A program made the translations under genes and the position numbers. DNA of 64,000 nt from an uncultured Alphaproteobacteria bacterium (GTDB taxonomy: Bacteria; Pseudomonadota; Alphaproteobacteria; Sphingomonadales; Sphingomonadaceae), in NCBI GenBank assembly GCA_942492965.1, contig OW818656.1:1998360-2062359 (forward strand), read 5' to 3'. A model generated the notes under the pieces. The model had not been told where the DNA came from. It saw only the letters and a program-made list of their open reading frames with translations, and did not search any database. Numbering within the stretch: the stretch's first letter is position 1; every line of letters begins with the position of its first letter. Positions 36,600 through 61,478 of the stretch are shown here, one piece after another.

Positions 36600-36614
36600 C
36601 TCAACTTGAACTCG
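36600..36614 (-). promoter_or_regulatory. Cluster box CGAGTTCAAGTTGAG (sense on minus strand)
   Basis: One of 10 related 15-mers. It lies ~65 nt upstream of the ACAD start at 36535. Confidence 0.5.
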
Positions 36615-36653
36615 TTTTCGATAGGCTTTGACTCATTTCCAGGCACCGCCTCG

Positions 36654-37811
36654 TCAGTTCCTGAGCACCAGCGCGCCGTTGGGAGTCGTGTCGCAGGAGG
36701 TGACGAGGCAGGTCGATGCGCCCTCGATCTGCGTCAATGCCTCACCGCGCAATTGCTTCACAGCTTCGCTCATCAGGTTCATGCCATGCAGGTAGACTTC
36801 AGCCAGGCTGCCGCCCGACGTGTTGACCGGCAGGCGCCCGCCCGGCCGCAGCGTCCCGTTCGCGATGAAGTCCCCGGCCTCGCCCCGGCCGCAAAACCCA
36901 TAGGCTTCGAGGCTGAACAGAACGAGCGGCGAAAAGGCATCGTAGATCTGCGCGACATCGATGTCAGCGGCCTTGATGTCGGATTGGCGCCACAGGTTCG
37001 CGGCGCAGGTCCACGATGAGCTGCGCAGCGGATCGGCGCTGTGATAATCGGTCATCAGCTGGTGCTGCGGTTTCATGCCCTGCGAAAAGGCGTGGATATG
37101 CACGGGCGGCTTCCGGCAATCCGCCGCCCGATCGCTGCGCACGAGCACGAGCGCGATGGCGCCGTCGCTTTCAAGGCAATTGTCGAACAAGCACAGGGGA
37201 TCGGAGATCATCCGCGCGCTTAGATAGTCCTCCATCGACAGCGGCCGTGCGCCCATAAGCGCCCTGGGATTGTTATGCGCATAGGCGCGCATGGACAGCG
37301 CCACTTCGGCCAGTTGCTCGTGCGTCACCCCATAATCATGCATGTAGCGCCGCGTCAGCACGGCGACTTCGTCGACGGGGCGGAGCAGGCCCTGCGGCCG
37401 CGTCCATTTCCAGTGGTCGTCGACGGAGGCGCGAACGCCTGCCCACAGCCGCTTGGAAGGGTCGCCGCGTTTGCGCGAACGCCACACCACGCCGACGTTG
37501 GCAACACCTGCGGCGATCGCCAGCGCGAGCTGGCCGACCGCGCCGCAACCTGCGCCGCCGCCGTGCGGCGATTGCGACAGGAAGTGCACCCCGCCCATGC
37601 CCACGCTGCGCGCGATCTCGAACTCGGGTGTCTGTTCATAGGTATAGCACGACAGCGCATCGACTTCGCTGGGCTGAATGCCCGCATCGTCGAGCGCCGC
37701 CTTGATCGCGCGGCAAGCCAGCAGGAATTCGGACTCCTCCAGGCGCCTCGCGAATTCGGTTTCGCCGATCCCGACGATCGCGGTCTGGTCTTTCAGCATC
37801 ATGGTCTCCAC
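36654..37811 (-). CDS. SCP-x / lipid-transfer-type thiolase-family protein
   Basis: AIVGIGETEF.. N-terminus and thiolase fold length, with a C-terminal NTSGG-containing region (VNTSGGSLAE). Confidence 0.8.
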   Translation of the reverse strand: METMMLKDQTAIVGIGETEFARRLEESEFLLACRAIKAALDDAGIQPSEVDALSCYTYEQTPEFEIARSVGMGGVHFLSQSPHGGGAGCGAVGQLALAIAAGVANVGVVWRSRKRGDPSKRLWAGVRASVDDHWKWTRPQGLLRPVDEVAVLTRRYMHDYGVTHEQLAEVALSMRAYAHNNPRALMGARPLSMEDYLSARMISDPLCLFDNCLESDGAIALVLVRSDRAADCRKPPVHIHAFSQGMKPQHQLMTDYHSADPLRSSSWTCAANLWRQSDIKAADIDVAQIYDAFSPLVLFSLEAYGFCGRGEAGDFIANGTLRPGGRLPVNTSGGSLAEVYLHGMNLMSEAVKQLRGEALTQIEGASTCLVTSCDTTPNGALVLRN

Positions 37812-37817
37812 GTCGCG

Positions 37818-40800
37818 CTATTCGGCCGGCACCAGCAGCTCGGCCCGGGATGCCGTGGCATAGCGTTCCCGTAGCGCCGCCAGATGCGCGCGCGCCTTCG
37901 CGAGGCTCTCGTCCTTCACGACATCATAGCCGCGGATCAGTTCGGGATAGGACGCGATCTCCACCGCGATATCGTAAGTCGCGGGCGTCATGTCCTTCAG
38001 CAGATCGTCGATCATCGCTTCATACTCGGCGATCAGCGCACGTTCCGCGCGGCGATGCGCGTCGTATCCGAACGGGTCGAGCGGCGTTCCGCGAAGGAAT
38101 TTCAGCCGCGCGAGGATCATATAGAGCAGCATCGTGCCCCGACCGAACGTCCGCTTGGGATAGCGGCCGGTGCGCTTGTCGCGCCGCTGCAGGATCGGCG
38201 GCGCCATATGGAACTCAAGCCGCAGGTCGCCCTCGAATTCCTGTTTCAGCGCTTCAAGGAAGCTGCCGTCGCTGTATAGCCGGGCAACCTCATACTCGTC
38301 CTTGATCGCCATCAGCTTGAAGGCGTAGCGCGCGACCGCTTTGGTCAGCGCCTGTGTCTTGCCGACACGCGCGTCGGCCCGGCGGACGCGCTCGATCAAC
38401 GCACGATATCGGTCCGCATAGGCGCCGTTCTGATAGCGCGCCAGCTCATCCGCCAGCCGCGCGGCGAGCGTGTCGGCATCCTCCGTCTGCAAGACTTCGT
38501 CGGACACGCCCTGGCCAAAGGCCATCGCTTCGACCGCAGGAAGATCCGCTGCGGCGAGCCGCCCCCAGGTGAGGGCGGCCGTGTTCATTTCGACGCTGAC
38601 GCCATTCAGCTCGATGGCCCGCAGCAGCGCGGCGAGGCCGACTGGCAGCCAGCCCTTCTGCATGGCGTAGCCGACGAGGAAGAGGTTTGTGGCCACCTCA
38701 TTGCCAAGCAATGCATAGGCAAGGCGGCCCGCGTTGACGAATTCGGCATGGTCATCGCCCAGCAGGCCGCGAATGCCCGCCATCATCCCCTCGGCGGTCA
38801 GGTTGAGATCGGGATTTCTCGCGAAGGCCGATGTCGGCATGACGCGCGTGTTCACGACCGCCCGGCTTTTGCCGGCGATCATTTTCGACATGACGTCCTG
38901 CCCCGTGGTCACGACGATGTCGCAGCCCAGAACGACATCGGCGGCAACGATGCGGGTCGCGTGCAGCTGCTCCGGCAGGGCGGCGATCCGCACATGGCTG
39001 GTGACGGGGCCGTTGCGCTGCGCGAGTCCGGCAACATCAAGGACGGAGCATCCCTTGCCTTCGAGATGCGCGGCCATGCCCAGCAGCGCGCCGATGGTCA
39101 CGACACCGGCGCCGCCAATTCCGGTCACCAGCAGGCTGAACGGCTGCTCGCACGCCGCGACCTCGGGCTCCGGAAGGCGCGCGGCGCATTCAGCCGCCTC
39201 GGCGGGCAGTGCCGCGCCGTGTCCGGCCGTGCGTTTGCGCGGTGTGCCCCCGTGCACGGTGACGAAGCTGGGGCAATAGCCCTTCTTGCACGAGAAGTCC
39301 TTGTTGCAGGCGGACTGGTTGATGCGCCGCTTGCGGCCGAAGGCGGTTTCGACGGGTTCGATGGCGATGCAATTCGATTGCACGCCGCAATCGCCGCAGC
39401 CTTCGCAGACGCGCGGATTGATGAAGATGCGCCGGTCGGGATCGACGGCGGAACCGCGCTTGCGGCGGCGGCGCAGTTCGGTTGCGCAGAACTGCTCATA
39501 GACGATGATCGAGACGCCCTCGATCTCGCGCAGTTCCTTCTGCACATCGTCCAGCCTGTCACGGTGGTGGATGGTGACGCCGGGCGCGAAGGCGTAACCT
39601 TCGGCATATTTCTCGATATTGTCGCTGACCACCGCGATCCGGCGGATGCCCTCGGCATGGACCTGCCGCGTCAGTTCGTCGACGCGCACATTGCCTTCGA
39701 TCTGCTGACCACCGGTCATGGCGATCGCGTCGTTGACGAGGATTTTGTAGGTGATGTTCACGCCTGCGGCGACCGCGGCGCGGATCGCCAGAAGGCCCGA
39801 ATGATAATAGGTGCCGTCGCCCAGATTCTGGAAGATGTGCTTGCGTTCGGTGAAGGGCGAAAGGCCGATCCAAGGCGCGCCTTCGCCGCCCATCTGGAAC
39901 AATGTCGGCGTGTTGCGCTCGGGCAGGAAGGTCGCCATGCCGTGACAGCCGATACCGCCGAACGCCACACTGCCTTCCGGCACCTTCGTCGACGTGTTGT
40001 GCGGGCACCCCGCGCAGAAGATGGGCAGTCGCATGAGTCCGCCGCCCGTCGCGGCACCCGCCACGGCAGGGGCGGCAACGGGCAGCGCCGCGCTGCCCAG
40101 TCGTGTCAGGACTGCCCGGATGATTCCCGATAGCGCCGCCGCATTCAACTCGGCCTCGGCGGGGATCAGCGGCGCACCCCGTTCATCCTGCTTGCCCAGA
40201 AGGAGGGGCGCTTCCTTGTCGTTGACGAACAGGCTGGCGAGCTGCGTCTCGATCACCGGCCGCTTTTCTTCCACGACGAGGATCGCCCGATAGGCGCGGG
40301 CGAATTCGGAGATCAGGTCGGGCTCCAGCGGCCACGGCATGGCGACCTTGAAAACGCCGACGCCGATCGCGCGGCATCGGTCGTCATCGAGCCCGATTTC
40401 CTCCAGCGCCTGCATCACATCGAGATGCGCCTTGCCCGTCGTGACGATGCCGACCAGGCCGGCCTCGCCCTGGATGACGGCCCTGTGAATGACGGCCCTG
40501 TTCAGCCGGTTCGCCTTCACGAACGTCTTCACTGCGGGAATCCGCTGCTGATAGTGGCGCTGCTCGACCATCACGGGGTGGATGCCCCAGCCGACATTCA
40601 GCCCGTTTTCCGGCAGGCCCGGGATGTCGGGCAGGGTGATTTCGACCTGATCGCCCGCAATGTTGACAGACGCCGAACTCTCGATCGTGTCGGTTACGCA
40701 TTTCATGCCGATCCAGCAGCCCGAAAAGCGCGACAGGGCGATACCGCAGAGCCCGTAATCCAGATAATCCTGAACCGTGGCGGGATTGAAATAGGGCATG

Positions 40801-41324
40801 CCGTAATGGATGAAGGCATGGTCGCTCTGGTGCGCGACAGTTGAGGATTTCGCGCCGTGGTCGTCTCCGGCCAGCACGAGGACGCCGCCATGCTTCGACG
40901 ATCCGGCATAGCTGCCGTGCTTCAGTGCATCGCCGGCGCGGTCGACGCCCGGCCCCTTGCCATACCAGAGTGCGAACACGCCGTCATAGCGGGCCTCGCC
41001 GAACAGGTCAGTCTGCTGCGACCCCCACACGGCGGTCGCTCCCAGCTCCTCGTTGATTCCCGGTTGGAAGACGATGTGGTGCGCGTCGAGATCGCGCTTC
41101 GCGGCCTTCAGCGCCGTGTCATAGCCGCCAAGCGGCGATCCGGTGTAACCCGATATGAAACCGGCGGTGTTGAGCCCGTTCGCGAGGTCGCGGCTGCGCT
41201 GCATCATCGGCAGGCGCACGAGCGCCTGCGAGCCCGACAGGTAAACGCGGCCATTGGTTTTCCGATAGCGGTCGTTCAGCGCATAATCGCGCAGGCCCGG
41301 TGCCGTTTTTTCAGGCGTTGTCAT
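37818..41324 (-). CDS. Fused indolepyruvate/2-oxoacid:ferredoxin oxidoreductase family protein (~1168 aa)
   Basis: GYTGSPLGGYD, GGEGAPWIG, and Cys clusters CEGCGDCGVQSNC and CNKDFSCKKGYCPSF. ATG 41324 overlaps the DUF35 stop (ATGA). Confidence 0.85.
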   Translation of the reverse strand: MTTPEKTAPGLRDYALNDRYRKTNGRVYLSGSQALVRLPMMQRSRDLANGLNTAGFISGYTGSPLGGYDTALKAAKRDLDAHHIVFQPGINEELGATAVWGSQQTDLFGEARYDGVFALWYGKGPGVDRAGDALKHGSYAGSSKHGGVLVLAGDDHGAKSSTVAHQSDHAFIHYGMPYFNPATVQDYLDYGLCGIALSRFSGCWIGMKCVTDTIESSASVNIAGDQVEITLPDIPGLPENGLNVGWGIHPVMVEQRHYQQRIPAVKTFVKANRLNRAVIHRAVIQGEAGLVGIVTTGKAHLDVMQALEEIGLDDDRCRAIGVGVFKVAMPWPLEPDLISEFARAYRAILVVEEKRPVIETQLASLFVNDKEAPLLLGKQDERGAPLIPAEAELNAAALSGIIRAVLTRLGSAALPVAAPAVAGAATGGGLMRLPIFCAGCPHNTSTKVPEGSVAFGGIGCHGMATFLPERNTPTLFQMGGEGAPWIGLSPFTERKHIFQNLGDGTYYHSGLLAIRAAVAAGVNITYKILVNDAIAMTGGQQIEGNVRVDELTRQVHAEGIRRIAVVSDNIEKYAEGYAFAPGVTIHHRDRLDDVQKELREIEGVSIIVYEQFCATELRRRRKRGSAVDPDRRIFINPRVCEGCGDCGVQSNCIAIEPVETAFGRKRRINQSACNKDFSCKKGYCPSFVTVHGGTPRKRTAGHGAALPAEAAECAARLPEPEVAACEQPFSLLVTGIGGAGVVTIGALLGMAAHLEGKGCSVLDVAGLAQRNGPVTSHVRIAALPEQLHATRIVAADVVLGCDIVVTTGQDVMSKMIAGKSRAVVNTRVMPTSAFARNPDLNLTAEGMMAGIRGLLGDDHAEFVNAGRLAYALLGNEVATNLFLVGYAMQKGWLPVGLAALLRAIELNGVSVEMNTAALTWGRLAAADLPAVEAMAFGQGVSDEVLQTEDADTLAARLADELARYQNGAYADRYRALIERVRRADARVGKTQALTKAVARYAFKLMAIKDEYEVARLYSDGSFLEALKQEFEGDLRLEFHMAPPILQRRDKRTGRYPKRTFGRGTMLLYMILARLKFLRGTPLDPFGYDAHRRAERALIAEYEAMIDDLLKDMTPATYDIAVEIASYPELIRGYDVVKDESLAKARAHLAALRERYATASRAELLVPAE

Positions 41325-41791
41325 TGCGTTTTCCCGAAATTCCGTCCGGTCTGAATGCCCAGACACCAGAAGGGCAGCGCGCAGTCCTCCGACACCTTCC
41401 GGAACAGCAGCCGAACCGGCTGTCCGATCGCGACGTCGGCGGCGGTGAGGCCGGTCACGCTGCCTGCGTCGTCGGCGACGGCCATGCCCGCGATGCGGAT
41501 CGCGGGATGCGTGCCCAGCGCGCCAATGATGGTCACATAGGGCGCCATCGCCTCGAACGCTGGCAGCAGAGGGAGCGCGGGGCAGGCGAAAGACCAGACG
41601 GTCCCTTCGGGTGCGACCTCGTTCCAGATGCTGTCCTCAGACTGGCAGTGCGGGCACATCGGGCGCGGTGGAAACCGCATCTCTCCGCAAGCGTCGCAGG
41701 TCTGGACGACAAGCCGGCCTTCGAGCGCGTTTGTCCAGAACTCCCGGTCGAGCGGATTGTCGGTCGCCGGCAGGGGCAGCGTCTCGATCAT
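41321..41791 (-). CDS. DUF35 Zn-ribbon/OB-fold protein
   Basis: CDACGEMRFPPRPMCPHC rubredoxin-like knuckle followed by an OB-like C-terminus. Confidence 0.75.
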   Translation of the reverse strand: MIETLPLPATDNPLDREFWTNALEGRLVVQTCDACGEMRFPPRPMCPHCQSEDSIWNEVAPEGTVWSFACPALPLLPAFEAMAPYVTIIGALGTHPAIRIAGMAVADDAGSVTGLTAADVAIGQPVRLLFRKVSEDCALPFWCLGIQTGRNFGKTQ

Positions 41792-42579: not shown

Positions 42580-42674
42580 AGTCTCGAAGCGAATGTCCTG
42601 TTCCTCTTCCGAAATCCCGGCCGCACGGGCGCGCTTCGCGGATCATCCGGGGGAGGTTATGGAGGGTGCGACAA

Positions 42675-42730
42675 CTCAACATAAACTCGCATTCCCGCCC
42701 CTTCGCGAGCGAAAGCGAGTTTATGTTGAG
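42675..42730. promoter_or_regulatory. Perfect 16-bp inverted pair of the cluster box in a divergent promoter region
   Basis: CTCAACATAAACTCGC-N24-GCGAGTTTATGTTGAG, between the ECH start (42579, minus) and the FAD dehydrogenase start (42809, plus). Confidence 0.6.
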
Positions 42731-42808
42731 GCGGCCCGGACGTCTTTTCCGCAGTGTTTGCAGGGTCGATCGGCTTGCCGCAAACATGTGGAGTGACAGC
42801 GGAGAACC

Positions 42809-44539: not shown

Positions 44540-44612
44540 CGATCGAGGTTCGGCTTTGCCGGATAGTTGAAGGATGAGGAAACGGAACGTGGCGAGATCC
44601 AAGGACTATAAC

Positions 44613-48142: not shown

Positions 48143-48214
48143 GCTGATGGTCTTGATCCGTAATCCGGGTTCGCACCGCGGCTGCGAACGTCGCTGGATT
48201 AACCCTGCGCGACG

Positions 48215-48293
48215 CTCACCTTAAACTCGTTTTAGGTCGTTCCGGGCGGCGCCCGCATCCAGCCATGCGAGGCTTATGCGAGTTCAAGTTGAA
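48215..48293. promoter_or_regulatory. Two inverted cluster boxes in a divergent promoter region
   Basis: CTCACCTTAAACTCG (48215-48229) and CGAGTTCAAGTTGAA (48279-48293), between the ligase start (48142, minus) and the ACAD start (48388, plus). Confidence 0.5.
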
Positions 48294-48387
48294 CAGCTTT
48301 CTCCCTAGTCGAGGCGCGGGACATTGATCATCGAGAAGGACGCGTGCGGGGCGGGGCATGGAGCCGGGCCGCATTGTCGGGAAACCT

Positions 48388-49551
48388 ATGAACAGCTTAT
48401 CCGAGGCCGACCATATCCTGATGCTGCGCGAGACATTGTCCCGCTTCATCGAAAGGGAAATGCCGCTCGATCTCGTCAGGAAATGGGATCACGACAATCA
48501 CTTTCCGCGCGATGTGCATCGGAAGCTGGCGGAGCTGGGCCTGATGGGCCTCACCGTGCCAGCCGAATATGGCGGCGGCGGCCGCGATGTGCGCGCGACG
48601 ATCGTGGCGATCGAAATGCTGTGCGGCCGAAGCATGGCCGTCGGCGGACCCTATATCCAGTCGGCCTGCTATGCGGGTCTCAACATCGCCGAGGTCGGCA
48701 GCGAGCGCCAGAAGCGCGAGATCCTGCCCCGGGTCGTCAGCGACGGCCTGATTTTCGCGTACGGCATCAGTGAACCCGATGTTGGCGCGGACGTCGCTTC
48801 GGTGCGGGCGACGGCCAGGGTCGACGGCGACCGGCTGATCATCAACGGATCGAAGCGCTTTTGCTCGGGCGCGAAAATTTCGGACTATATTTACACGCTG
48901 GTGCGCACGGGGCCGCAGGAAGACAAATACCGCAACCTCACGCTGGTGCTGGTTCCCTCCGATGCCGATGGCCTCACTTACGAGGCGCAGGACGCCATGG
49001 GCCTGAAAGGCACCGGGACCTACGACGTGAGTTTCGCCGATGTTGCGGTCCCGATGGAAAACGTGGTCGGCGAAGCGGCGGGCTGGAACAATGCGTGGTC
49101 GATGCTGCTCGGCCCCGGGCTCGATATCGAAAAGATGGAAGTCGCCGCCATGGCGCTGGGCATCGCGTCCGCCGCGGTCGAGGAGGCGTGGGCCTATGCG
49201 CAGGAGCGCATTCAGTTCGGCCAGCCGATCTCCGCGTTCCAGTCGATCCGGCACATGCTGGCCGAGGTGCAGACAAAGCTGCACGCCTGCCGCGTGCTGA
49301 CCTATCAGACCGCCGACACGCTGGACCGCGAAGGCAGGGCCTCGCTCGAAACGTCGATGGCCAAGCTGTTCGTATGCCAGGCGGCTCAGGAGATCGTCCT
49401 CGCCTGTCAGCAGGTTCTGGGCGCCTATGGCTATATCAAGGAATTCGACATGGAGCGGCATGTCAGGGACATATTGATCATGCCCATCCTTGGCGGATCG
49501 TCGGCGATCCAGAAGAATAATATCTGCAACATGATGAAGTTGAAGAAATAG
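48388..49551 (+). CDS. Acyl-CoA dehydrogenase
   Basis: Full ACAD fold (YGISEPDVGADV, KRFCSGA, QVLGAYGYIKEFDMERHVRD, ILGGSSAIQ). An alternative start exists at 48358. Confidence 0.85.
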   Translation: MNSLSEADHILMLRETLSRFIEREMPLDLVRKWDHDNHFPRDVHRKLAELGLMGLTVPAEYGGGGRDVRATIVAIEMLCGRSMAVGGPYIQSACYAGLNIAEVGSERQKREILPRVVSDGLIFAYGISEPDVGADVASVRATARVDGDRLIINGSKRFCSGAKISDYIYTLVRTGPQEDKYRNLTLVLVPSDADGLTYEAQDAMGLKGTGTYDVSFADVAVPMENVVGEAAGWNNAWSMLLGPGLDIEKMEVAAMALGIASAAVEEAWAYAQERIQFGQPISAFQSIRHMLAEVQTKLHACRVLTYQTADTLDREGRASLETSMAKLFVCQAAQEIVLACQQVLGAYGYIKEFDMERHVRDILIMPILGGSSAIQKNNICNMMKLKK

Positions 49552-49554
49552 CGC

Positions 49555-49875
49555 ATGCCCAAAATCACTTTCATCACGCATGATGGAGCGCAGCATGTGG
49601 CCGAGACCGAAGTCGATGTGTCGGTCATGAAGGCGGCGATCGGCAACATGGTCCCGGGCATCGATGCCGATTGCGGCGGCGCGTGCGCCTGCGCCACATG
49701 CCATGTTTACGTGGATGCGGCATGGATCGGCAAAACGGGTGCGCCAGACGAGATGGAGCAGGCGATGCTCGAATATGTTTCTGAGCCCGGCGGCGGTTCG
49801 CGTCTCTCGTGCCAGATCACCGTGACCGAGGAGCTGGACGGCCTCGTCGTCCGGCTCCCGAAGCAGCAGGGATGA
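49555..49875 (+). CDS. [2Fe-2S] ferredoxin, adrenodoxin/putidaredoxin type
   Basis: [12 protein letters not shown] plus a distal LSCQI cysteine. 106 aa. Starts 3 nt after the ACAD stop. Confidence 0.85.
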
Positions 49876-49879
49876 AGGG

Positions 49880-50185
49880 TCAGGCTGCCGGGGGAACACC
49901 TTCGGCCAGCAACAGATCCGTCGTCACCCCGCTGGCCTTTCGCAGCGCGATCATGCGCGCGTAATCCGGATCGGAGTACCAGGCCTGTGCCGCTTCACGA
50001 TCGGGGAATTCGATCAGCACCAGCGCGTGGCCCGGCGGCTCGGCGCCTTCCAGCCTTTCGGCCTCACCGCCCTTGATCAGGTAGCGACCACCATGTTTTT
50101 CCACGAGCGGCTCCGTGACGGAGCGATACTCCCGGTACCAATCCCAGTTCTCGACGATCAGCTTCCCGAATATATATGCCGGCAT
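49880..50185 (-). CDS. DUF1330-family protein
   Basis: MPAYIFGKLIVENWDWYREY..GGRYLIKGG..LIEFPDREAAQAWYSDPDY matches the DUF1330 pattern from memory. Confidence 0.65.
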   Translation of the reverse strand: MPAYIFGKLIVENWDWYREYRSVTEPLVEKHGGRYLIKGGEAERLEGAEPPGHALVLIEFPDREAAQAWYSDPDYARMIALRKASGVTTDLLLAEGVPPAA

Positions 50186-50227
50186 GGTGGCTCCATCTTC
50201 TTTGGTTGCCGCATATCAAGGCCGGTC

Positions 50228-50341
50228 CTCACAATGAACTCGCATGGGGTCCGGCGCAGGTGCAGGCAGCGACAAAGCAGTCCATTGCCGAATTGCCGAC
50301 GCGCGGCTTTTGCGACACTATCGGGCCGAGTTTATGTAAAG
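50228..50341. promoter_or_regulatory. Two inverted cluster boxes in a divergent promoter region
   Basis: CTCACAATGAACTCG (50228-50242) and CGAGTTTATGTAAAG (50327-50341), between the DUF1330 start (50185, minus) and the TetR start (50362, plus). Confidence 0.5.
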
Positions 50342-50361
50342 TCGATGGGATCAAGTTGCCG

Positions 50362-51012
50362 ATGACGCCCCCTGCAGACACGCCCGCTGCCGCTCAAGGC
50401 GAAGTGGCTGATGTTGGACGCCGAAAGAATCCAAAACAGCAGCGGGCAATGGTCACCGCCGAAGCGATCACGCAGGCCACCGAGCAGATCATCGTTCGAG
50501 AAGGCTTCCAGGCCGCGACGACCAACCGGATCGCCGAGGTGGCGGGGGTCAGCGTCGGATCGCTGTATCAGTATTTTCCGAACAAGCAGGCGATCGTCAA
50601 GGCGCTCATCGAAGAGACGGTGACGAAGGCCGCGGCGCGCATCCGCGAAGCGCTGCGCAATTCGATGGAAGAGCCGCTGGAGCCGGCGCTGCGGCGTGTC
50701 ATGACGCTGCTGCTCGAAATCTACAAGGAAAACCATTTCATCCTGTTCCGCATTCTGGATCAGGTGCCGGAACTGAAGAAATACACGTCAAGCCTGTCGG
50801 TCGAGAACTACACGCATTCGACGAACCTGGCTTTCCTGGAGCAGCATCAGGCGGAGATCAAGGTGTCGGACCTGCGCACCGCACTGCTGCTCGTCGAGCG
50901 CGCGACGATCCAGAACATCGAGTATTTCCTGGCGCATAATCCCACCAACATCACCGAAGAGCAGCTCATCGACGAAGTGACGCGAATGGCGGTCAATTAT
51001 CTGACGAAATAG
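50362..51012 (+). CDS. TetR-family transcriptional regulator (paralogue 2)
   Basis: HTH ATTNRIAEVAGVSVGSLYQYFPNKQAI. Aligns colinearly and without gaps to the TetR at 31324. Confidence 0.85.
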   Translation: MTPPADTPAAAQGEVADVGRRKNPKQQRAMVTAEAITQATEQIIVREGFQAATTNRIAEVAGVSVGSLYQYFPNKQAIVKALIEETVTKAAARIREALRNSMEEPLEPALRRVMTLLLEIYKENHFILFRILDQVPELKKYTSSLSVENYTHSTNLAFLEQHQAEIKVSDLRTALLLVERATIQNIEYFLAHNPTNITEEQLIDEVTRMAVNYLTK

Positions 51013-51781
51013 CCTGATCGGATATGCGCGCCCTGATGGCCGCCAGCCGGTTCCGAACGAAGGGCGAGTGCAGCAGCTGGTGGAAGCTTTCGGCCTCCTG
51101 CCGCATCGCGGCATGGATCGCCGCGCGCTCATCGGCCTTGAGCAGCGTCTTGGTCATGACGACGGCGTCCAGCGAGAGCGCTGCGATGCCGCCCAGAACC
51201 CTGAGCGCGTGAGCCTCCAACTCTTCACGCGGCACCGCTTCGTTGACAAGGCCGAGGTCCACCGCCGTTCTCATGTCGCAGCCGCGTTCGTTAAGCAGGA
51301 TCGCCATCGCCCGGCGGTGCCCGGCCAGCCGCGGCAGCAGCAGGCTTGAAGCGAACTCCGGGATCAGCCCCATGTCGGCGAACGGAAAGACGATCCGGGC
51401 CTCGGGCACGCCGTACACCATGTCGCAGTGGAGCAGCATGGTGGCACCGATGCCGACGGCGTTGCCGTTCAGCGCCGCCGCGATAGGCTTGGGGAAGTCT
51501 ACCAGGGCCTTCATGAAGTGAAAGGACGGCTTTTCATCATAGGCCATCTCCAGCCCCTGCGCGAAGCCTGCCACGTCATGGCCGGCCGTGAAGATCGCGC
51601 CGGTTGAGGCGAAGAGGACGCAGCTGATATCCTCGTCGTGTTCGGCGATATCCAGAAGCGCGACCAGTCGCCGGTACATGTCGTAGCTGATCGCGTTCCG
51701 CTTGCTTTCGCGGCTCAGCCGGATCGTCATGATCCGGTCCGCGACAGCGACCTCAATGCCCGTGGGTTCCGTTTCGACCAT
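50993..51781 (-). CDS. Enoyl-CoA hydratase/isomerase-family protein
   Basis: IMTIRLSRESKRNAI and STGAIFTAGHDV motifs. ATG at 51781 (the ORF-track start at 51874 is an extension). Confidence 0.8.
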   Translation of the reverse strand: MVETEPTGIEVAVADRIMTIRLSRESKRNAISYDMYRRLVALLDIAEHDEDISCVLFASTGAIFTAGHDVAGFAQGLEMAYDEKPSFHFMKALVDFPKPIAAALNGNAVGIGATMLLHCDMVYGVPEARIVFPFADMGLIPEFASSLLLPRLAGHRRAMAILLNERGCDMRTAVDLGLVNEAVPREELEAHALRVLGGIAALSLDAVVMTKTLLKADERAAIHAAMRQEAESFHQLLHSPFVRNRLAAIRARISDQAISSDN

Positions 51782-51836
51782 TGCCCGCCTTTGTCCGTCA
51801 CTCGGTTTCCGGGCACGGACACTGGTATCCGGGCGG

Positions 51837-51888
51837 CTAAGGTTAAACTCGCTTTCCCGGCGCGCGGGGAACACGAGTTTATTATGAG
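51837..51888. promoter_or_regulatory. Two inverted cluster boxes in a divergent promoter region
   Basis: CTAAGGTTAAACTCG (51837-51851) and CGAGTTTATTATGAG (51874-51888), between the ECH start (51781, minus) and the P450 start (51966, plus). Confidence 0.5.
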
Positions 51889-51965
51889 CCGCCCCGCCGA
51901 ATAGGCTCCGCGACGATTGAAGGCGTGAAAAAGCGCTGAAACAGGCTGATCCGGGGTGATCGTGA

Positions 51966-53147: not shown

Positions 53148-53180
53148 GCCGGAAACCGCCCCCAATTCAGGAGTAATCTC

Positions 53181-54152: not shown

Positions 54153-54161
54153 GAGGATTTC

Positions 54162-55759: not shown

Positions 55760-55761
55760 AG

Positions 55762-56862
55762 ATGGATCTCGATCTGAACGAAGAGCAGCAATTGCTGTGC
55801 GATACGGTTCGGCGGATTTGCGAAGCGACCTTCGATGCCGGGAAGGTCCGCGCGCTCGAAGCCGAAGACGACAAATTGAACCGCCCGTTCTGGACGGAGC
55901 TTGGCGCGGCGGGGCTGTGCGGACTTCGCATCGCCGAAGCCCATGGCGGCGCCGCGATGAGTGCGCTCGATCTCGCGCTGGTCAGCGAGGAGTTCGGCCG
56001 TGCGCTCGCGTCGTCCCCCTTCCTGTCCAGTTGCATCCTTTCGGCCCGCATCCTGGCGTCGCTGGCGCCGGTCGACGTGCAGGATGAATATCTGCACGCC
56101 ATCGCGGCAGGCGCGCGGATCGTGATTCCCGCGTGGCAGGGGAATGACCTTGGTGCCGACACCGCGCGGGCCTCGATCGATGCCGCGCGCGCCACGCTTT
56201 CCGGGGAAATGTTGCTCGTTCCCTTCGCCAGCGTCGCCGATCTGTTCCTTGTCCACGCGTGTGGTGAGGGCGGTGGATGCTGGACGCTGATACCGGCGGA
56301 CGCCGGCGGCGTTTCCATCAAGGCGCAGCCCAACTATGCCTCGCAGGCGCTGTTTGCCGTCCGTTTCGATGATGTCGAAATCGATCCGGTGCGCAGCTTC
56401 CCCGATGGGGAGACGCCTGGTGCGGACGCCGCCGTCTTCGGCGATGTTCTGATCGCGGTCGCGGCGGAAGCGGTGGGTGCGGCGGACCGGCTGCTCGCGC
56501 TGACGGCGGATTACGCCAACCAGCGCCAACAGTTCGGCCGGCCGATCGCAGGCTTCCAGGCCGTGTCGCATCCGCTGGCGGAGTGCGCCACAGAGCTGGA
56601 GGGCGCGCGCTATCTGGTCTATCAGGCGGCGTGGGCGAAGGATGGCGGTATGCCGCACCACCACCTCGCGCAGATGGCGAAGCTGAAGGCGACGTCGCTG
56701 TTCCGCCGGCTGGCGACGGTGAGCGTTCAGGTCCATGGCGGCATCGGCTATTCGACCGAAGCCGAGCCGCAGCTTTTCTACCGCCGATCGAAATTTCACG
56801 AACTGATGTACGGGACACCGGCGGAACTCAGGGCGCGGATATCCGATCATGTCTTCGCGTGA
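55762..56862 (+). CDS. Acyl-CoA dehydrogenase-family protein (second of adjacent pair)
   Basis: MDLDLNEEQQLL.. and QVHGGIGYSTEAEPQLFYRRSK. Starts 2 nt after the previous stop. The arrangement resembles heteromeric steroid FadE pairs. Confidence 0.8.
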   Translation: MDLDLNEEQQLLCDTVRRICEATFDAGKVRALEAEDDKLNRPFWTELGAAGLCGLRIAEAHGGAAMSALDLALVSEEFGRALASSPFLSSCILSARILASLAPVDVQDEYLHAIAAGARIVIPAWQGNDLGADTARASIDAARATLSGEMLLVPFASVADLFLVHACGEGGGCWTLIPADAGGVSIKAQPNYASQALFAVRFDDVEIDPVRSFPDGETPGADAAVFGDVLIAVAAEAVGAADRLLALTADYANQRQQFGRPIAGFQAVSHPLAECATELEGARYLVYQAAWAKDGGMPHHHLAQMAKLKATSLFRRLATVSVQVHGGIGYSTEAEPQLFYRRSKFHELMYGTPAELRARISDHVFA

Positions 56863-56877
56863 TCGGCGGCCGGTGAG

Positions 56878-57411
56878 ATGAACCGGGAAACCGGCCCTGA
56901 CGATGCGCTGGACGCGGCTGTCGCCCGGTTCATCGGCAAGCCCCAATATGTGTCGGACCTCGGCATTGCGGCCAACGCGCTGTCGGTGCGCGCCATGTGC
57001 GCGGCAGTCGAGGATGCCAGCGCTGTGCACTGGAACGAGGCGGAGGCTGTCGCCCTACTGGGCGCACCTTATGCGCCGGCAACGATGCTGGCCGCCTGGG
57101 GCCGGCCTGAGCTTTGGGAGCCGGGCCAAAGCGAGCCGCTACGGGCGCTGCAGGCGCATTTCGATCTCAAGGACCTGCTTGGGTATCCCGCCTCCGTCGC
57201 GGTGTCGAACAGCCTCATTTTCTACGCGCCCGTGAAGATCGGTGATCGGCTGCGGACACAGCAGGTCGTGCGGGACATCGGCGACATCAAGGACACGAAA
57301 CTGGGGCGGGGCCGCTTCTGGACGGTCGAGATGCAATATCTTGATGAGGCCGGCGATCTGGTCGGGGTCGAGCGCTACGAGTTCTTCGGATTTCGAAAGG
57401 ACGCGCCGTGA
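56878..57411 (+). CDS. MaoC-N-type hotdog protein (ChsH1-like hydratase subunit)
   Basis: Length and C-terminal hotdog pattern (IGDRLRTQQVV..GRGRFWTVEMQY..VERYEFFGF). Confidence 0.65.
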   Translation: MNRETGPDDALDAAVARFIGKPQYVSDLGIAANALSVRAMCAAVEDASAVHWNEAEAVALLGAPYAPATMLAAWGRPELWEPGQSEPLRALQAHFDLKDLLGYPASVAVSNSLIFYAPVKIGDRLRTQQVVRDIGDIKDTKLGRGRFWTVEMQYLDEAGDLVGVERYEFFGFRKDAP

Positions 57412-57887
57412 CGCAGCTGCTGATCGCGGACGTCGCGGCAGGCGCGGCGCTTCCGGCGTTGATCTATGACGTGACCGCGACCCGGCTGATCGCCGGCGCG
57501 CTCGCGAGCCGTGATTATTCGCCGCTCCATCACGACCGTACCTATGTCGTCGATGTGGCGGGGCAGCGCGACATCTTCGCCAACACCCAGTTTCAGGCCG
57601 CGCTCATCGAGCGCTATCTCGGGGATTGGTCCGGCCCGCTGGGGCGGATCGCCCGGATGCAGTTCCGGATGAAGTCGTCGATCTTCGCGGGCGACCGCGT
57701 GCTGCTCGGCGGCGTCGTCGAACAGGTGCATGCCGAAGGGCCTTGCGGTGCCTCGGCGGCGGTCAACATCACCCTGTCGGTGGAGGGCCGGCTCGCGACG
57801 ACGTGCGAGGCGCTATATGCCCTGCCGGCGTCGGCGGGCGACAATCCGTGGGCAAGGCGCGGGATGCAGTGGCTTCAGCCCGATTGA
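57408..57887 (+). CDS. MaoC-like dehydratase hotdog protein (ChsH2-like subunit, without DUF35)
   Basis: YSPLHHDRTYV..GQRDIFANT motif. 4-nt overlap with the preceding hotdog gene. Confidence 0.7.
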   Translation: MTQLLIADVAAGAALPALIYDVTATRLIAGALASRDYSPLHHDRTYVVDVAGQRDIFANTQFQAALIERYLGDWSGPLGRIARMQFRMKSSIFAGDRVLLGGVVEQVHAEGPCGASAAVNITLSVEGRLATTCEALYALPASAGDNPWARRGMQWLQPD

Positions 57888-57898
57888 TCGCGCGCGAC

Positions 57899-57940
57899 TT
57901 TTCTATGCTGTGATGTGAATTTTCTATGCTGTGATGTGAA
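57899..57940. repeat. Perfect 21-bp tandem duplication (2 copies)
   Basis: TTTTCTATGCTGTGATGTGAA x2. Copy 2 (57920-57940) contains the last codons and stop of the minus-strand SDR (..FHITA*). Confidence 0.9.
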
Positions 57941-58697
57941 AGCCACCGTCGATGCCGATATGCTGTCCCGTGATGTACGAGGCCGCGTCGGACAGGAAGA
58001 AGCAGGTCGCAGGCGCGACGTCCTCGGGCGCGGAAAAGCGGCCGAGCGGGATCGCTTCGAGATAGCGGTCGCGAAACTTCTCCTGCCGGATGGTCTCGGT
58101 CATCGCGGTTTCAACCAGGCCATAGCAGACGCTGTTGACGTTGACGTTATAGCGGCCCCATTCGCGCGCCGCGCTCATCGTCAGCCCCAACATGCCGGAT
58201 TTTGCTGCGCCATAGTTGATCTGCCCGAACGTGCCGCGGCGTCCGGCGTCGGATGACACGTTGACGATCGACCCTGGATTCTGATCGCCCTTCTTCGCCT
58301 TGTCGACAAGGAAACGCCCGACGGCCTGCAGGCACAGGAAGGCGCCGGTCAGGTTCACGTCGATAACCGCCTGCCAGTCGGCGCGCCGCATGTCGGTGAT
58401 CATTGCCGCCCTGACGATGCCCGCGTTGTTCAGCAGGCCGTTCACATCGCCGAAGGTCGCGGCGGTTTCCGCCACGACGCCAGCGATGAAATCCTCGGCG
58501 GTGATGTCCCCCGCGAAGCACTGCACCCGCTTCGCGTCCTGCGCGCCGAAGCTCTCGTTGAGCGCCGCCGCGTTGATATCGACAGCGGCGACGCGCGCGC
58601 CCATCAAAAGCGCATGGTCGGCGAGCGCCTTGCCGATGCCCTGCGCGGCGCCGGTGATGATAATGACTTTGTTCTCAAGCGATGCGGGATTGTGCAC
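57924..58697 (-). CDS. Short-chain dehydrogenase/reductase
   Basis: ITGAAQGIGKAL, NNAG, YGAAKSG. GTG 58697 lies 6 nt after GAAGGA. The ORF remains open up to 58763. Confidence 0.8.
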   Translation of the reverse strand: MHNPASLENKVIIITGAAQGIGKALADHALLMGARVAAVDINAAALNESFGAQDAKRVQCFAGDITAEDFIAGVVAETAATFGDVNGLLNNAGIVRAAMITDMRRADWQAVIDVNLTGAFLCLQAVGRFLVDKAKKGDQNPGSIVNVSSDAGRRGTFGQINYGAAKSGMLGLTMSAAREWGRYNVNVNSVCYGLVETAMTETIRQEKFRDRYLEAIPLGRFSAPEDVAPATCFFLSDAASYITGQHIGIDGGFHITA

Positions 58698-58726
58698 GCG
58701 CGTTCCTTCGTGAATGCGATTCGAGA

Positions 58727-59932
58727 TCAGCTGTCCAGCAATCCAAGGATGGAGATGCTGCACACATTATTGTTCGGGAAACCGCCGAGATTGTGGGTCA
58801 GCGCCCTGCGCGGCCGGGAAAGCTGGCGATCCCCGGCCCGGCCGAGCAGCTGGTTGTAGCTCTCGTAGACCATCCGCAGCCCGGAGGCGCCGATCGGGTG
58901 GCCGAAGCATTTGAGGCCGCCGTCGATATTACTCGCGACCTCCCCGTCCGCATCGAATTTTCCCGCGAGCACATCGCGATACCCCTCGCCGGGTTTGGAC
59001 AGCCCCAGATCCTCCATCGTCACCAGTTCGGTGATCGAAAAACAGTCATGCACCTCGACCATGTCGAGTTCGCGCACGGGATCGGCGATGCCGGCTTCGC
59101 GATAGGCCCTGGCGGCGGCGATCCGCGTCGTGTGCGCGTAGCTGCCGTCCCAGCCATTGTGCGACATTTCCGATCCGTTGCTCAGCGACAATTGCATCGA
59201 CTTGACGCTGACGAGATCGCCTGTCCGGCCCAGCCGCTTCGCCATTTCCGGGCTGGCCACGATCGCGCAGGCCGATCCGTCGCTGACGCCGCAGCAGTCG
59301 AACAAACCGAGCGGGTAGGCGATCATCGGCGCGTTGATGATCGCCTCCTTCGAAAGCCGCCGCCGCAGATGCGCCTTGGGGTTCTTGGCGCCGTTCTCGT
59401 GGCTTTTCCACGATACGTGCGCCATCGCTTCCTTCAGCGTATCGAACGTCAGCCCGTGGCGCGTCATATAGGCGCTGGCGAACTGGGCGAACGAGCCCGG
59501 CGCGGTCACGCCCGGCTGCCAAAGGTCGTTGAACGTGCCCCTGCTGCGTTCGGGAAGGCCGCCATAGCCGGTGTCCTTCAGCTTTTCGACGCCGAGCGCG
59601 AGCGCGATGTCGGCCGCGCCGGCCGCGACCGCATAGACGGCGCCACGCAGCGCTTCCGATCCCGTCGCGCAGAGATTTTCCACGCGCGTCGCGGCGATGT
59701 TCGGCAGGCGCAATGTCTGCGACAGCGACAGTGCCGACTTGCCCAGGTTCTGCTCGTCCATCGAAAGGCCGAACCAGGCCGCGTCGATCTGGTCGCGATC
59801 GATGCCGGCATCGGCGATGGCTTCGCGGAACGATTCGGCCATCAGGTCTTCGGCGCTGCAGTCCCATCGTTCGCCGAAGCGCGAACAGCCCATGCCGATG
59901 ATGGCAACCTTGTCCCTTATGCCCTCAGCCAT
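58727..59932 (-). CDS. SCP-x / lipid-transfer-type thiolase
   Basis: VAIIGMGCSRFGE and NLCATGSEAL (nucleophile Cys region), with C-terminal GHPIGASG. An alternative start exists at 59956. Confidence 0.85.
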   Translation of the reverse strand: MAEGIRDKVAIIGMGCSRFGERWDCSAEDLMAESFREAIADAGIDRDQIDAAWFGLSMDEQNLGKSALSLSQTLRLPNIAATRVENLCATGSEALRGAVYAVAAGAADIALALGVEKLKDTGYGGLPERSRGTFNDLWQPGVTAPGSFAQFASAYMTRHGLTFDTLKEAMAHVSWKSHENGAKNPKAHLRRRLSKEAIINAPMIAYPLGLFDCCGVSDGSACAIVASPEMAKRLGRTGDLVSVKSMQLSLSNGSEMSHNGWDGSYAHTTRIAAARAYREAGIADPVRELDMVEVHDCFSITELVTMEDLGLSKPGEGYRDVLAGKFDADGEVASNIDGGLKCFGHPIGASGLRMVYESYNQLLGRAGDRQLSRPRRALTHNLGGFPNNNVCSISILGLLDS

Positions 59933-61391
59933 GCGCTGTTCCTTCTTCTTCTCCATGCACGGGTGCGGCTTTCCAGAAATATCGATGGAACTGCCGCTTG
60001 GGATCTTTTTCCTTGATACGGAAAACGAAGCGGACGGGCAGGCCGACGCGCAACTGGCCCGGTTCGAAATCGGTGAATTCCATCATGATGACGCCGCCGT
60101 CGTCGAAGGTGACATTGCCGTACATCAGCGGCGGATTGGCGGAGACGGCCAGCCAGTCCTCGGTGTAGGATTTGACCGTGGCGACCTTGTGCTCGAAGGG
60201 TTCGTCGATCAGCGTGTCGAACTGCCGGCATTCGGGGTTGACGCAGCAACGGCCCTTGGGAAATTGCCGTGTCCCGCACGCCGTGCACAGGCCGCCCACG
60301 AAGCCCGTCGCCGTCTTGCGATGACGATTGAATGCGGACAGCGCCGTCCGGTTGTCGCGCTCGGCGCGGATACCCCAGTCGATGTCGATCTGGTCGTTGA
60401 ACGACAGGAAGCGCAGATAATTGTCATCGTCGACGCCCCCGTCCAGCTGACTGCGGATCGAACGAACGGGCGCCTGCTTGCCGACCGCATCCGTGGTTTC
60501 GAACAGCAGCGCCTGGGCGCCCTGCGCGATGTTCACCAGCAGGATTGTCTCGCCGGGCGCGGCCGTCTCCAGCGCGTGGCACAGCAGCAGCAGCGCGTGC
60601 GCTGAGCCTGTGTCACCGCATCCGGCCTCGAGCACATCGACGAGCCGCGCCTCGGGAATACCGCTCAGTCCCGCGATCTGGCGCGCGGCGGCGCGGCCCG
60701 CCCCTGCGAGCACGAGATGGTCGATATCGTCGGCGCCCAGATTGGCGGCGGCGAGAATCGCCGCGATTGCCGGCGGTGCGGCCTTCATCTGCCCCTCGTC
60801 GCGCACCCAGCGCTCTTCGAGGAGATAATCGGTTTGCGCCCCCGCTGTGCGGTAATGGTCGACGAAGTCGGTCGCGCTCGAATGCGCGGCAAGGACGCGC
60901 GCGATGACATTGTCGGTGCCGGTCGTCACCGCCGCCGCGCCGTGACCGAGCGACAATTCCTGCACGGACGCTGCCTTCGCCAGCCGCTTTTCGGAAGCGA
61001 CCGTCAGCGCCGGCCGTTCGCATTCCAGTGCATTGATCAAAGCGGTCACGCCGCAGCCGAGGAAGCCGGTCACGTCGCTGCAGCGGACATCGGCGGGTCG
61101 GCCGAGCGCTTCGTTCAGGATCACCGAATTGGCGCGGTCGGCGAAGGGCGCCGTGGTGCTGGCGAACTGGATGAGGCCAAGCGGCGTGTCATCCGCGCCC
61201 GCCAGGCAAAAACGGCTCGCCTCGACCGCCATCGTCAGGCTGTCCTCGTCATGCGAACAGATGGTACGGTGGCCCTTGCCATGCGCCGCCAGTGCGGGAT
61301 TGGCCCATTTGCCCGCATCGACGACCGCCTTGCGCAGGAGCCGCCGCCTCGGGAGATAGCCCGCGATCGAGGTGATACCGGTTCTGAACAT
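59925..61391 (-). CDS. HMG-CoA-synthase/KAS-III-like domain fused to a C-terminal DUF35 Zn-ribbon/OB fold
   Basis: N-terminal ~340 aa is thiolase-superfamily condensing-enzyme-like. The C-terminus carries CTACGTRQFPKGRCCVNPEC plus an OB-like tail. Confidence 0.7.
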   Translation of the reverse strand: MFRTGITSIAGYLPRRRLLRKAVVDAGKWANPALAAHGKGHRTICSHDEDSLTMAVEASRFCLAGADDTPLGLIQFASTTAPFADRANSVILNEALGRPADVRCSDVTGFLGCGVTALINALECERPALTVASEKRLAKAASVQELSLGHGAAAVTTGTDNVIARVLAAHSSATDFVDHYRTAGAQTDYLLEERWVRDEGQMKAAPPAIAAILAAANLGADDIDHLVLAGAGRAAARQIAGLSGIPEARLVDVLEAGCGDTGSAHALLLLCHALETAAPGETILLVNIAQGAQALLFETTDAVGKQAPVRSIRSQLDGGVDDDNYLRFLSFNDQIDIDWGIRAERDNRTALSAFNRHRKTATGFVGGLCTACGTRQFPKGRCCVNPECRQFDTLIDEPFEHKVATVKSYTEDWLAVSANPPLMYGNVTFDDGGVIMMEFTDFEPGQLRVGLPVRFVFRIKEKDPKRQFHRYFWKAAPVHGEEEGTAHG

Positions 61392-61463
61392 TTTCTCTCC
61401 GCTCTGTCACCCGGCCGCAGGCCGGGCGGTGCGCCGCTGCCAGCCTGCCTAGGAACGCGGGCG

Positions 61464-61478
61464 CTCAGGTAAAACTCG
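61464..61478 (-). promoter_or_regulatory. Cluster box CGAGTTTTACCTGAG (sense on minus strand)
   Basis: Lies ~73 nt upstream of the ATG at 61391. Confidence 0.45.

Follow-up and report, generated by a model that had tools for sequence, protein, structure and literature searches.

A conserved direct-repeat box at the promoters of a steroid-type catabolic cluster in a member of the Sphingomonadaceae, a probable operator of cluster-encoded TetR proteins

The stretch of DNA analysed here, hereafter the window, comprises 64 kb of contig OW818656.1 (positions 1,998,360 to 2,062,359) from an uncultured member of the Sphingomonadaceae. From about 31.4 kb to its end it carries a steroid-type catabolic gene cluster, in which a short oriented box recurs upstream of the transcription units. 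Sequence comparison indicates that this box is a real, selected cis-element and not a mobile repeat, since it is conserved across related loci and almost absent from control loci. It is probably the operator of TetR-2 and/or TetR-1, two TetR-type proteins encoded in the cluster, which would block the sigma-70-type promoters of the operons for steroid catabolism. Of the ten sites listed in an initial annotation of the window, nine are confirmed as members of the box family, and one weak site has been added to them.

How aerobic steroid degradation is regulated is well understood for Actinobacteria, with KstR and KstR2, and poorly understood for Proteobacteria. Among sphingomonads, a study of the testosterone cluster of Caenibius tardaugens reported that no regulator lies nearby and that basal expression is high (PMC6895838). 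The motif described here provides a first testable model for the switching on of steroid genes in Proteobacteria and a means of predicting the regulon. It pairs a candidate repressor with an operator and could serve in steroid biosensors, and it helps to spot steroid-degrading clusters in metagenomes. Its direct-repeat build would be an unusual architecture for an operator of the TetR family, and it links in a large, uncharacterised TetR subfamily of many phyla.

The ten 15-mers of the initial annotation are all present at the positions and on the strands given there. The exact pattern CGAGTTYAWNNTGAG occurs six times in the window, against 0.00 expected (100 shuffles), and 12 times when up to two mismatches are allowed, against 2.66 expected. 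Ten of these 12 are the annotated sites (six exact and four near matches), and the remaining two (at 3086 and 54718) are unrelated and coding. All ten sites are indeed intergenic, face the downstream gene and lie 20-95 nt from its start. Measured to the start of the longest open reading frame, the distances for boxes 1 to 10 are 64, 95, 78, 72, 64, 42, 20, 55, 77 and 72 nt, the ATG of ECH_8 downstream of box 8 having been re-placed by hand at 51781. As for the spacing of the inverted pairs in divergent regions, the values of 49 and 84 nt are right, but those given as 19 and 24 nt are wrong, the measured gaps being 26 and 22 nt. The 15-nt unit is a real core but too short. In an alignment of 39 sites the conserved unit is 20 nt long, AAwRCGAGTTyAWnnTGAGc (positions -3 to +16), with A-2, G2, A3, G4, T5 and A14 invariant. 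Information content is close to zero across the 30 nt upstream, and outside positions -3 to +16 only a downstream TA is conserved.

Scored with a position weight matrix (PWM) derived from sites in orthologous loci, nine of the window sites reach 23-32 bits, all of them within 28 kb. The control loci (L005-L080), which amount to 1.27 Mb of unrelated loci taken as background, gave a single match of at least 20 bits. Box 7 could not be retained as a member: it scores less than 11 bits, is without the AA and the TGAG, and lies in a region that is unconserved in six orthologous loci. The PWM found no box in the housekeeping half of the window, nor by the LysR gene or its divergent enoyl-CoA hydratase (ECH) gene, in agreement with the initial annotation. 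The claim that none precedes the PaaI thioesterase gene did not stand, as a weak eleventh site of 17.9 bits was found there.

Syntenic loci of about 20-21 kb each were retrieved via homologues of TetR-2 and of the acyl-CoA dehydrogenase (ACAD) ACAD_5. They include a JGI metagenome contig (L081), Rhizorhabdus wittichii (L082), Erythrobacter aurantius (L083) and Emcibacter (L084). Further loci come from Sphingopyxis (L085), Citromicrobium (L001), Sphingosinicella (L002), Parasphingopyxis marina (L088), Halioglobus and Haliea (L003 and L004), Zhongshania borealis (L086) and a metagenome-assembled genome (MAG) of Steroidobacteraceae (L087). A PWM built from the window sites finds boxes at equivalent promoters in all 12 of these steroid-cluster loci, so that the box-bearing taxa, Sphingomonadales, Emcibacter, Halieaceae, Zhongshania and Steroidobacteraceae, include both alpha- and gammaproteobacteria. 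The conserved boxed promoters are those of the CoA ligase, ACAD_5, DUF1330, ACAD_1, HMGCS-like, P450, KstD and ECH genes; the FadD3-like CoA ligase, the ECHs and the ACADs are the most widely conserved of the boxed genes. The flanks of the boxes are unconserved between loci. Boxes also persist where the cluster has been rearranged, as upstream of the HMGCS-like operon in L084, L085 and L088, and in L086, where DUF1330 is co-oriented with ACAD_5.

This conservation refutes the reading of the box as a product of chance or base composition, or as a short mobile or REP-like repeat without regulatory meaning, to which we give a vanishingly small probability. Exact matches to the 20-mer do occur in unrelated DNA. 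A metagenome scan for AAWRCGAGTTYAWNNTGAGC gave at least 120 matches, of which 118 of the 120 listed are chance matches in unrelated, often AT-rich or coding DNA, the only steroid clusters among the matches listed being L189 and L207; a scan of viral contigs gave 11 matches in all, each of them by chance. However, zero matches are expected in the window, the position and orientation of the box are kept across two proteobacterial classes although the flanks are not, and the downstream TA is conserved together with it. Nor does a mobile or REP-like repeat emerge: the copies share no sequence beyond the core and the TA, and a repeat finder detected no longer repeat family around the boxes. A structured RNA or riboswitch does not fit either, with the box lying upstream of the inferred transcription start and no Rfam family matching in the window. 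In the searchable literature, in which most subscription journals are not covered, we found no description of the motif, and full-text matches to the motif strings were only primers and similar sequences.

Two sets of matches from these scans deserve separate mention. Thirteen of the listed metagenome chance matches (L095, L104, L145, L159, L163, L170, L173, L180, L188, L194, L199, L202 and L204) have in common the longer sequence AAAGCGAGTTCATyATGAGCCTGTG(T/C)sAACAGCT(C/T)ATGGG(C/T)G, evidently part of one conserved gene of unrelated organisms that contains the pattern by chance. The sole strong match in the control set, AAGGCGAGTTGTACCTGAGC at 18570-18589 (+) of L015 (21.4 bits, with TAGGCG at offset 13), lies on a Steroidobacteraceae MAG, 8 kb from a TetR gene of the distant type described below. 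No orthologues of the window cluster genes were detected on the L015 locus.

The box is made up of two tandem 9-nt half-sites in the same direction, [AAwRCGAGT]-Ty-[AWnnTGAGc], with an 11-nt period; the second, AWnnTGAGc, is a weaker copy of AAwRCGAGT, 11 nt past it. The initial description of an oriented, non-palindromic element was thus correct, as the consensus has no dyad and the half-sites are direct. Dyad symmetry, the usual form of a TetR operator, was considered and rejected as the general rule, since the left arms vary at positions at which the right arms do not. Individual sites do contain palindromes: box 5 has a perfect one, GTTCA-N3-TGAAC, as do its orthologues, and boxes 1, 4 and 10 contain AAAC-GA-GTTT.

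The relation of the box to the promoter is given by the downstream TA. In 41 of 50 sites a TA (TAnnnT-like) starts 12-13 nt past the 15-mer, against about 1.3 sites per offset elsewhere. Aligned on this TA, the downstream hexamer reads TA(G)nnT, and in the lower-GC Zhongshania locus (L086) the hexamers TAGTAT, TAGAAT and TACGAT read as clear -10 elements. In most sites TTyAWn, at box positions 5-10, is 17-18 nt from TAnnnT. Since the TA is read as part of the -10, we infer that TTyAWn occupies the -35 position and that the box spans about -44 to -25, with its centre at about -34.5, over the -35 region of sigma-70-type promoters. The box itself was considered as a -10 element (YAWNNT) and rejected, there being no -35 upstream of it and a conserved TA downstream. 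Its placement would explain why it is always oriented with the gene, through the direct-repeat build and the -35 that it overlaps; where genes diverge, each promoter would have a copy of its own, which would leave the spacing between boxes free. Sites of class II activators centre near -41.5. The centre of the box at about -34.5 suggests occlusion of the promoter rather than class II activation.

A promoter element dedicated to an alternative sigma factor, in the form of an extended -35 and with no repressor involved, would also account for the strict orientation, for the fixed distance to the conserved TA and for the invariant bases where sigma region 4 would contact DNA. We regard this as very unlikely. 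The downstream element looks like an ordinary TAnnnT -10 (TAGAAT and TAGTAT in L086), 17-18 nt from TTyAWn, and the invariant CGAG and TGAG fall outside the hexamer position. Moreover, no sigma or anti-sigma gene is present in the window, and none is listed among the genes of the related loci retrieved. In distant TetR genes, described below, the half-site lies over the -10 and the transcript start, a different promoter position that is repressor-like.

Among the three options put forward initially for the box, a TetR operator, a site for an unlinked regulator and a dedicated promoter element, the first is the best supported, by a shared half-site and near-identical helix-turn-helix motifs. 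The TetR-2 gene (50362-51012, +; 216 aa, Pfam TetR_N) has syntenic orthologues in L081-L085 and L001, and its helix-turn-helix, TTNRIAEVAGVSVGSLYQYFPNK, is common to distant homologues. The TetR-1 gene (31462-32061, +), located with tblastn and with its start codon not fixed, encodes a protein 49% identical to TetR-2, with the helix-turn-helix TTNYIAERAGVSIGSLYQYFPNK, and has orthologues in L002, L084 and L087. Of the 13 genomic loci examined that bear boxes, 11 contain a TetR gene, the exceptions being L086 and L088. In the Halieaceae loci (L003 and L004) a box lies upstream of the TetR gene itself and points to it; in the window, box 6 is situated in the TetR-2/DUF1330 intergenic region but points to DUF1330. 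The cluster TetRs are by far the best candidates for the binding protein, on the strength of the common half-site, the near-identical helix-turn-helix and the Halieaceae box before the TetR gene. As between TetR-1 and TetR-2, either could be the binder, because they have the same helix-turn-helix and because boxes occur both in L087, whose contig has a gene of the TetR-1 type only, and in L085, which has TetR-2 only.

Two further observations concern the distribution of these proteins. Three TetR clades, TetR-1, TetR-2 and a Halieaceae type, have one common helix-turn-helix. The Emcibacter locus (L084) carries both the TetR-1 and TetR-2 types, at 15244-15846 (-) and 10001-10624 (+), and its TetR-1-type gene lies directly upstream of the boxed HMGCS-like operon.

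The half-site was also found upstream of distant TetR genes. In a profile search of contigs with the TetR-2 alignment, the matches listed were mostly distant homologues with 30-40% identity; these correspond to 76 loci (L005-L080, the same that served as the control set), which were retrieved via the generic peptide GSLYQYFP. Their hosts include Bradyrhizobium, Burkholderiales, Myxococcota, Nocardia, Mycobacterium, cyanobacteria and Flavobacteriaceae, among others. Among the matches listed, 73 of the 76 loci have a half-site A[AT]NN[CT]GAG in the 160 nt before the TetR gene; its density there is 14 per kb, as compared with 1.76 per kb for the remainder of these loci. The half-site consensus of the distant loci, AATGCGAG(T/C), corresponds to the 5' part of the box (AAwRCGAGT). 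An example of the upstream arrays is AGAATATGAGCGATCACTCGCTTTTGATACTCGCATTGG; the commonest consists of an inverted pair (offset 14) followed by a direct third copy (offset 13). In Nocardia loci there are two direct copies, AATGCGAAT-TG-AATGCGAGT, with the 11-nt period of the box. This TetR subfamily with upstream half-site arrays is large, spans many phyla and is apparently uncharacterised.

As an observation on the subfamily in its own right, a three-half-site array, AATRYGAGC-N4-GCTCRYATT-N3-4-TACTCGCATT, covers the -10 and start of the subfamily's own gene. It is situated about 20-110 nt upstream of the TetR genes, for instance at 9880-9960 in L013, 9880-9960 in L007 and 9915-9945 in L048. 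Its divergent neighbours vary, from an alpha/beta hydrolase in L010 to MpaB/Lcp-like oxygenases in L048.

In the proposed mechanism, the operator is built into the -35/spacer region of the steroid operon promoters. A repressor would bind the two tandem half-sites, cover about -44 to -25 and occlude RNA polymerase, and a steroid-derived metabolite would release it. By analogy with KstR2 and the FadR-type TetRs, the effector would most plausibly be a CoA thioester, for instance HIP-CoA. Two arguments make a CoA thioester plausible. Among the boxed genes, those for the FadD3-like ligase, ECH and ACAD are the most widely conserved, and acyl-CoA-binding FadR-type TetRs are structurally near the TetR-2 model. 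The suggestion is nevertheless a weak one. The AlphaFold model of TetR-2 has a pLDDT of 88.5, and a fold search with it returned generic TetR neighbours, with FadR-type proteins among the best (TM 0.60-0.64); no solved sequence relative of the TetR-2 effector domain was found.

Several points weigh against the operator reading. TetR homodimers normally read dyad-symmetric sites; the direct repeat is atypical for a TetR dimer. Dimer-of-dimers TetR complexes exist, CprB being an example (PMC4150764), and two dimers per box are one possibility for the reading of a direct repeat. Upstream of the TetR-1 gene neither half-site nor box was found, as the initial annotation had noted for the box, and L086 and L088 have boxes with no TetR gene within the 21 kb fetched. 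The half-site profile of the distant family matches the box in exactly two registers, offset by 11 nt (r = 0.79 and 0.62, the other registers giving |r| of at most 0.23), which speaks for the operator reading, but these correlations are inflated, because the half-site expression fixes six positions. Likewise, the DNA-reading region (S/T)TN(R/Y)IA..AGVS(V/I)GSLYQYFP(N/S)K is nearly identical in TetR-1, TetR-2 and the distant homologues, an identity of the helix-turn-helix that is partly selected by the retrieval via GSLYQYFP. With regard to the promoter, a strict scan for the Escherichia coli-type sigma-70 consensus found none at any box, the conserved TA is the sole basis of the -35/-10 assignment, and boxes 2, 3 and 8 have no TA at offset 12-13.

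Some of these points would suit a regulator whose gene lies elsewhere, such as an activator that brings RNA polymerase to the boxed promoters while the cluster TetRs act at other sites. Direct-repeat sites are common for response regulators and AraC-type activators. The -35-like hexamers (TTyAWn) are weak and were not picked up by the strict scan, so that activation could be needed, and the two boxed loci without a TetR gene within 21 kb would also be in keeping with an unlinked regulator. We nevertheless consider this explanation unlikely. The half-site equals the autoregulatory half-site of TetR homologues with the same helix-turn-helix, and a site that is centred at about -34.5 and extends to -25 lies too far downstream to suit a typical class II activator. 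In addition, the boxes of the loci examined are accompanied by no other regulator gene, and the LysR/ECH pair is unboxed.

The repressor reading invites comparison with KstR and KstR2. That the box is the operator of one of these actinobacterial regulators, transplanted into the cluster, is extremely improbable and already refuted by the sequence comparisons. The 14-bp KstR palindrome TnnAACnnGTTnnA has a single match in the 64-kb window, TTAAACTCGTTTTA at 48221-48234, which is box 4. This fit is an accident of AAAC-GA-GTTT: the other boxes have G or T where A is required, the AA that KstR requires before the C is variable in the box, and G2, A3 and TGAG are invariant in it. The KstR2 palindrome AnCAAGnnCTTGnT has no exact match in the window, and its four one-mismatch matches all lie away from the boxes. 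The most conserved boxed genes (FadD3-like ligase, ECH and ACADs) do resemble the KstR2 regulon (PMC5380842). However, neither regulator is among the best 60 PDB sequence matches, the KstR structure 3mnl ranks 46 in the fold search with TetR-2 (TM 0.47), and there is no NCBIfam KstR-type assignment. The statement in the initial annotation that the box is unlike both operators is borne out, KstR fitting one box of ten and KstR2 none. The coincidence at box 4 could mislead a motif scan into a KstR call.

The comparison does support the view that the box system works like KstR and KstR2, with one TetR motif before many steroid operons, while being a member of neither. It resembles KstR2 in having a cluster-encoded TetR-type regulator and one short motif before many steroid operons, often in divergent regions, and in the plausibility of an acyl-CoA effector. 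It differs in that the motif of KstR2 is unrelated and palindromic, whereas the box is a direct repeat, and in that the proteins are not close homologues. Furthermore, the boxed genes include not only the FadD3-like ligase, ECHs and ACADs expected of a HIP (ring C/D) regulon but also KstD, KshA, P450 and extradiol dioxygenase genes; boxes thus precede KstD/KshA, P450/dioxygenase and side-chain-type genes, which in Actinobacteria are controlled by KstR. With KstR the box system has in common the control of KstD/KshA-type genes and the overlap of operators with promoters, both putative for the box. It is set apart by nine boxes of ten that are off the KstR pattern, by other conserved positions and by a distant structure.

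In DNA reading the window TetRs resemble the distant GSLYQYFP-type proteins (AGVS(V/I)GSLYQYFP(N/S)K; L005-L080), whose nearest solved member is PDB 2oer. They have the same half-site, AA(T/A)(G/A)(C/T)GAG, and a near-identical helix-turn-helix, but their effector domains are only 30-40% identical overall. Their array lies over the -10/start of their own gene and usually includes an inverted pair ('><<', spacings 14 and 13), whereas the box, placed over the -35 at many catabolic promoters, comprises two direct copies with a period of 11 nt.

In the sphingomonad Caenibius tardaugens, the oestrogen (edc) cluster is repressed by the TetR protein EdcR, whose operator is the palindrome TnnCnnTACnAnTnGTAnnGnnA over the -10 (PMC8700777). 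Like the box system as proposed here, it combines a sphingomonad host, a TetR repressor of steroid catabolism and an operator that overlaps the promoters of divergent operons; unlike it, EdcR has a palindromic operator over the -10 and governs a different gene cluster. The EdcR operator has no match in the window with up to two mismatches. The PsrA-type consensus is (G/C)AAAC-N2-4-GTTT(G/C); its N2 form, SAAACNNGTTTS, the only one searched, has no match in the window. The FadR-type TetRs of Thermus and Bacillus, structural neighbours of the TetR-2 model that sense CoA thioesters, differ by their pseudo-palindromic operators. Mce3R demonstrates that TetR-like proteins can read asymmetric sites (PMC11667970), but it owes its asymmetry to the fusion of two TetR units, whereas TetR-1 and TetR-2 are each an ordinary protein with a single domain.

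A bolder scheme, which we put forward as a conjecture that may well prove wrong, is that a family of single-domain TetR homodimers reads head-to-tail half-sites one helical turn apart, with the operator fused to the -35 of every pathway promoter. TetR-1 and TetR-2, with the same specificity and different effector domains, would then compete for these sites, so that two intermediates would jointly gate the 9,10-seco pathway. If this were true, one motif would do the work that is split between KstR and KstR2 in Actinobacteria.

The individual sites are situated as follows, the coordinates being those of the 20-mers. Box 1, AAAACGAGTTCAAGTTGAGC (36599-36618, -; 30.4 bits), lies upstream of the ACAD_1-SDR-KstD-like operon, placed as an internal promoter after the thiolase gene. 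It is conserved in L002, L082, L086 and L087 and has a candidate -10, TAGCGG, at 36581-36586. Boxes 2 and 3 form a divergent pair. Box 2, AATGCGAGTTTATGTTGAGT (42674-42693, -; 30.0 bits), precedes the ECH/ChsH2-like/POR-DUF6537/thiolase operon and has an orthologue at 1486-1504 of L081; instead of a TA at offset 12-13 it has CATAAC at offset 14-15. Box 3, AAAGCGAGTTTATGTTGAGG (42712-42731, +; 28.9 bits), is upstream of KstD-KshA, with an orthologue at 1539-1557 of L081, and a -10-like TA at the usual distance is present in neither species.

Box 4, AAAACGAGTTTAAGGTGAGC (48214-48233, -), has the top score, 32.3 bits. It precedes the FadD3-like CoA ligase and ECH genes, is conserved in L081-L087, L001 and L189, and has a candidate -10, TAATCC, at 48196-48201. 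Box 5, TATGCGAGTTCAAGTTGAAC (48275-48294, +; 27.3 bits), is upstream of ACAD_5-ferredoxin. It is conserved in L081, L082, L085, L086, L087 and L088, more weakly in L083 and L001, with TAGTCG at 48306-48311 as its candidate -10. Box 6, CATGCGAGTTCATTGTGAGG (50227-50246, -; 23.4 bits), is upstream of DUF1330 in the intergenic region common with the divergent TetR-2 gene, where it is the sole conserved block in seven species; its candidate -10 is TATGCG at 50210-50215. In the same region lies the doubtful box 7, GGGCCGAGTTTATGTAAAGT (50323-50342, +; 15-mer at 50327-50341), 20 nt from the TetR-2 ATG, which has only CGAGTTTATGT in common with boxes 2 and 3. A sigma-70-like TTGCGA-17-TATGTA that overlaps box 7 (window 50295-50345, +), recognized by eye and unconserved in orthologues, may be the TetR-2 promoter.

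Box 8, AAAGCGAGTTTAACCTTAGC (51836-51855, -; 26.6 bits), lies upstream of ECH_8 and has its TA at offset 9; an orthologue was found in L081 only. Divergent from it, box 9, AACACGAGTTTATTATGAGC (51870-51889, +; 28.0 bits), precedes the P450/extradiol dioxygenase/ACAD/MaoC operon, is conserved in L081, L082, L083 and L001, and has a candidate -10, TAGGCT, at 51902-51907. Box 10, TAAACGAGTTTTACCTGAGC (61463-61482, -; 27.7 bits), is upstream of the HMGCS-like/thiolase/SDR operon, with conserved counterparts in L084, L085 and L088 and a candidate -10, TAGGCA, at 61446-61451. The weak candidate box 11, AAGGTGAGTATTTCGTGAAC (61494-61513, +), precedes the PaaI thioesterase gene and diverges from box 10; TAGCCT at 61526-61531 stands at the canonical distance, and the site is 37 nt before the ATG at 61550.

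As to the setting of these sites, the window has a G+C content of 65%, and its left half carries housekeeping genes (TonB receptors, MiaB, SurE, SerRS, PolA and others). The cluster encodes two KstD-like flavoproteins and a KshA-type Rieske oxygenase (KshA_C domain), an extradiol dioxygenase, a P450, ChsH2-domain proteins, Ltp-type thiolases, many ACADs and ECHs, and a DUF1330 protein. Its CoA ligase is FadD3-like, below the curated cut-off, and its regulator genes are two of the TetR and one of the LysR type. The window proteins are 82-98% identical to those of the Sphingosinicella MAG (L002). No similar cluster was found in the plasmid collection, and the C. tardaugens cluster is not in the list of ACAD_5 homologues. 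The TetR-2 orthologues of Sphingomonas sp. KC8 and Croceicoccus estronivorus have no gene record and lie outside the locus comparison.

Some of the cluster genes are of interest in themselves. The pair formed by an ACAD and a 2Fe-2S ferredoxin (48358-49875, +) and the adjacent DUF1330 gene (49880-50185, -) travel together with the box in alpha- and gammaproteobacteria, with the ferredoxin missing from some loci. Within the boxed operon downstream of box 2, between the ChsH2-like gene and an Ltp-type thiolase, lies a gene (37818-41366, -) for an 1182-aa protein resembling indolepyruvate/pyruvate:ferredoxin oxidoreductases (TPP_enzyme_C, POR and DUF6537 domains). An enzyme of the POR type is unexpected in an aerobic steroid cluster, and this one has counterparts with 63% identity in the steroid clusters of Halieaceae and 88% in L002.

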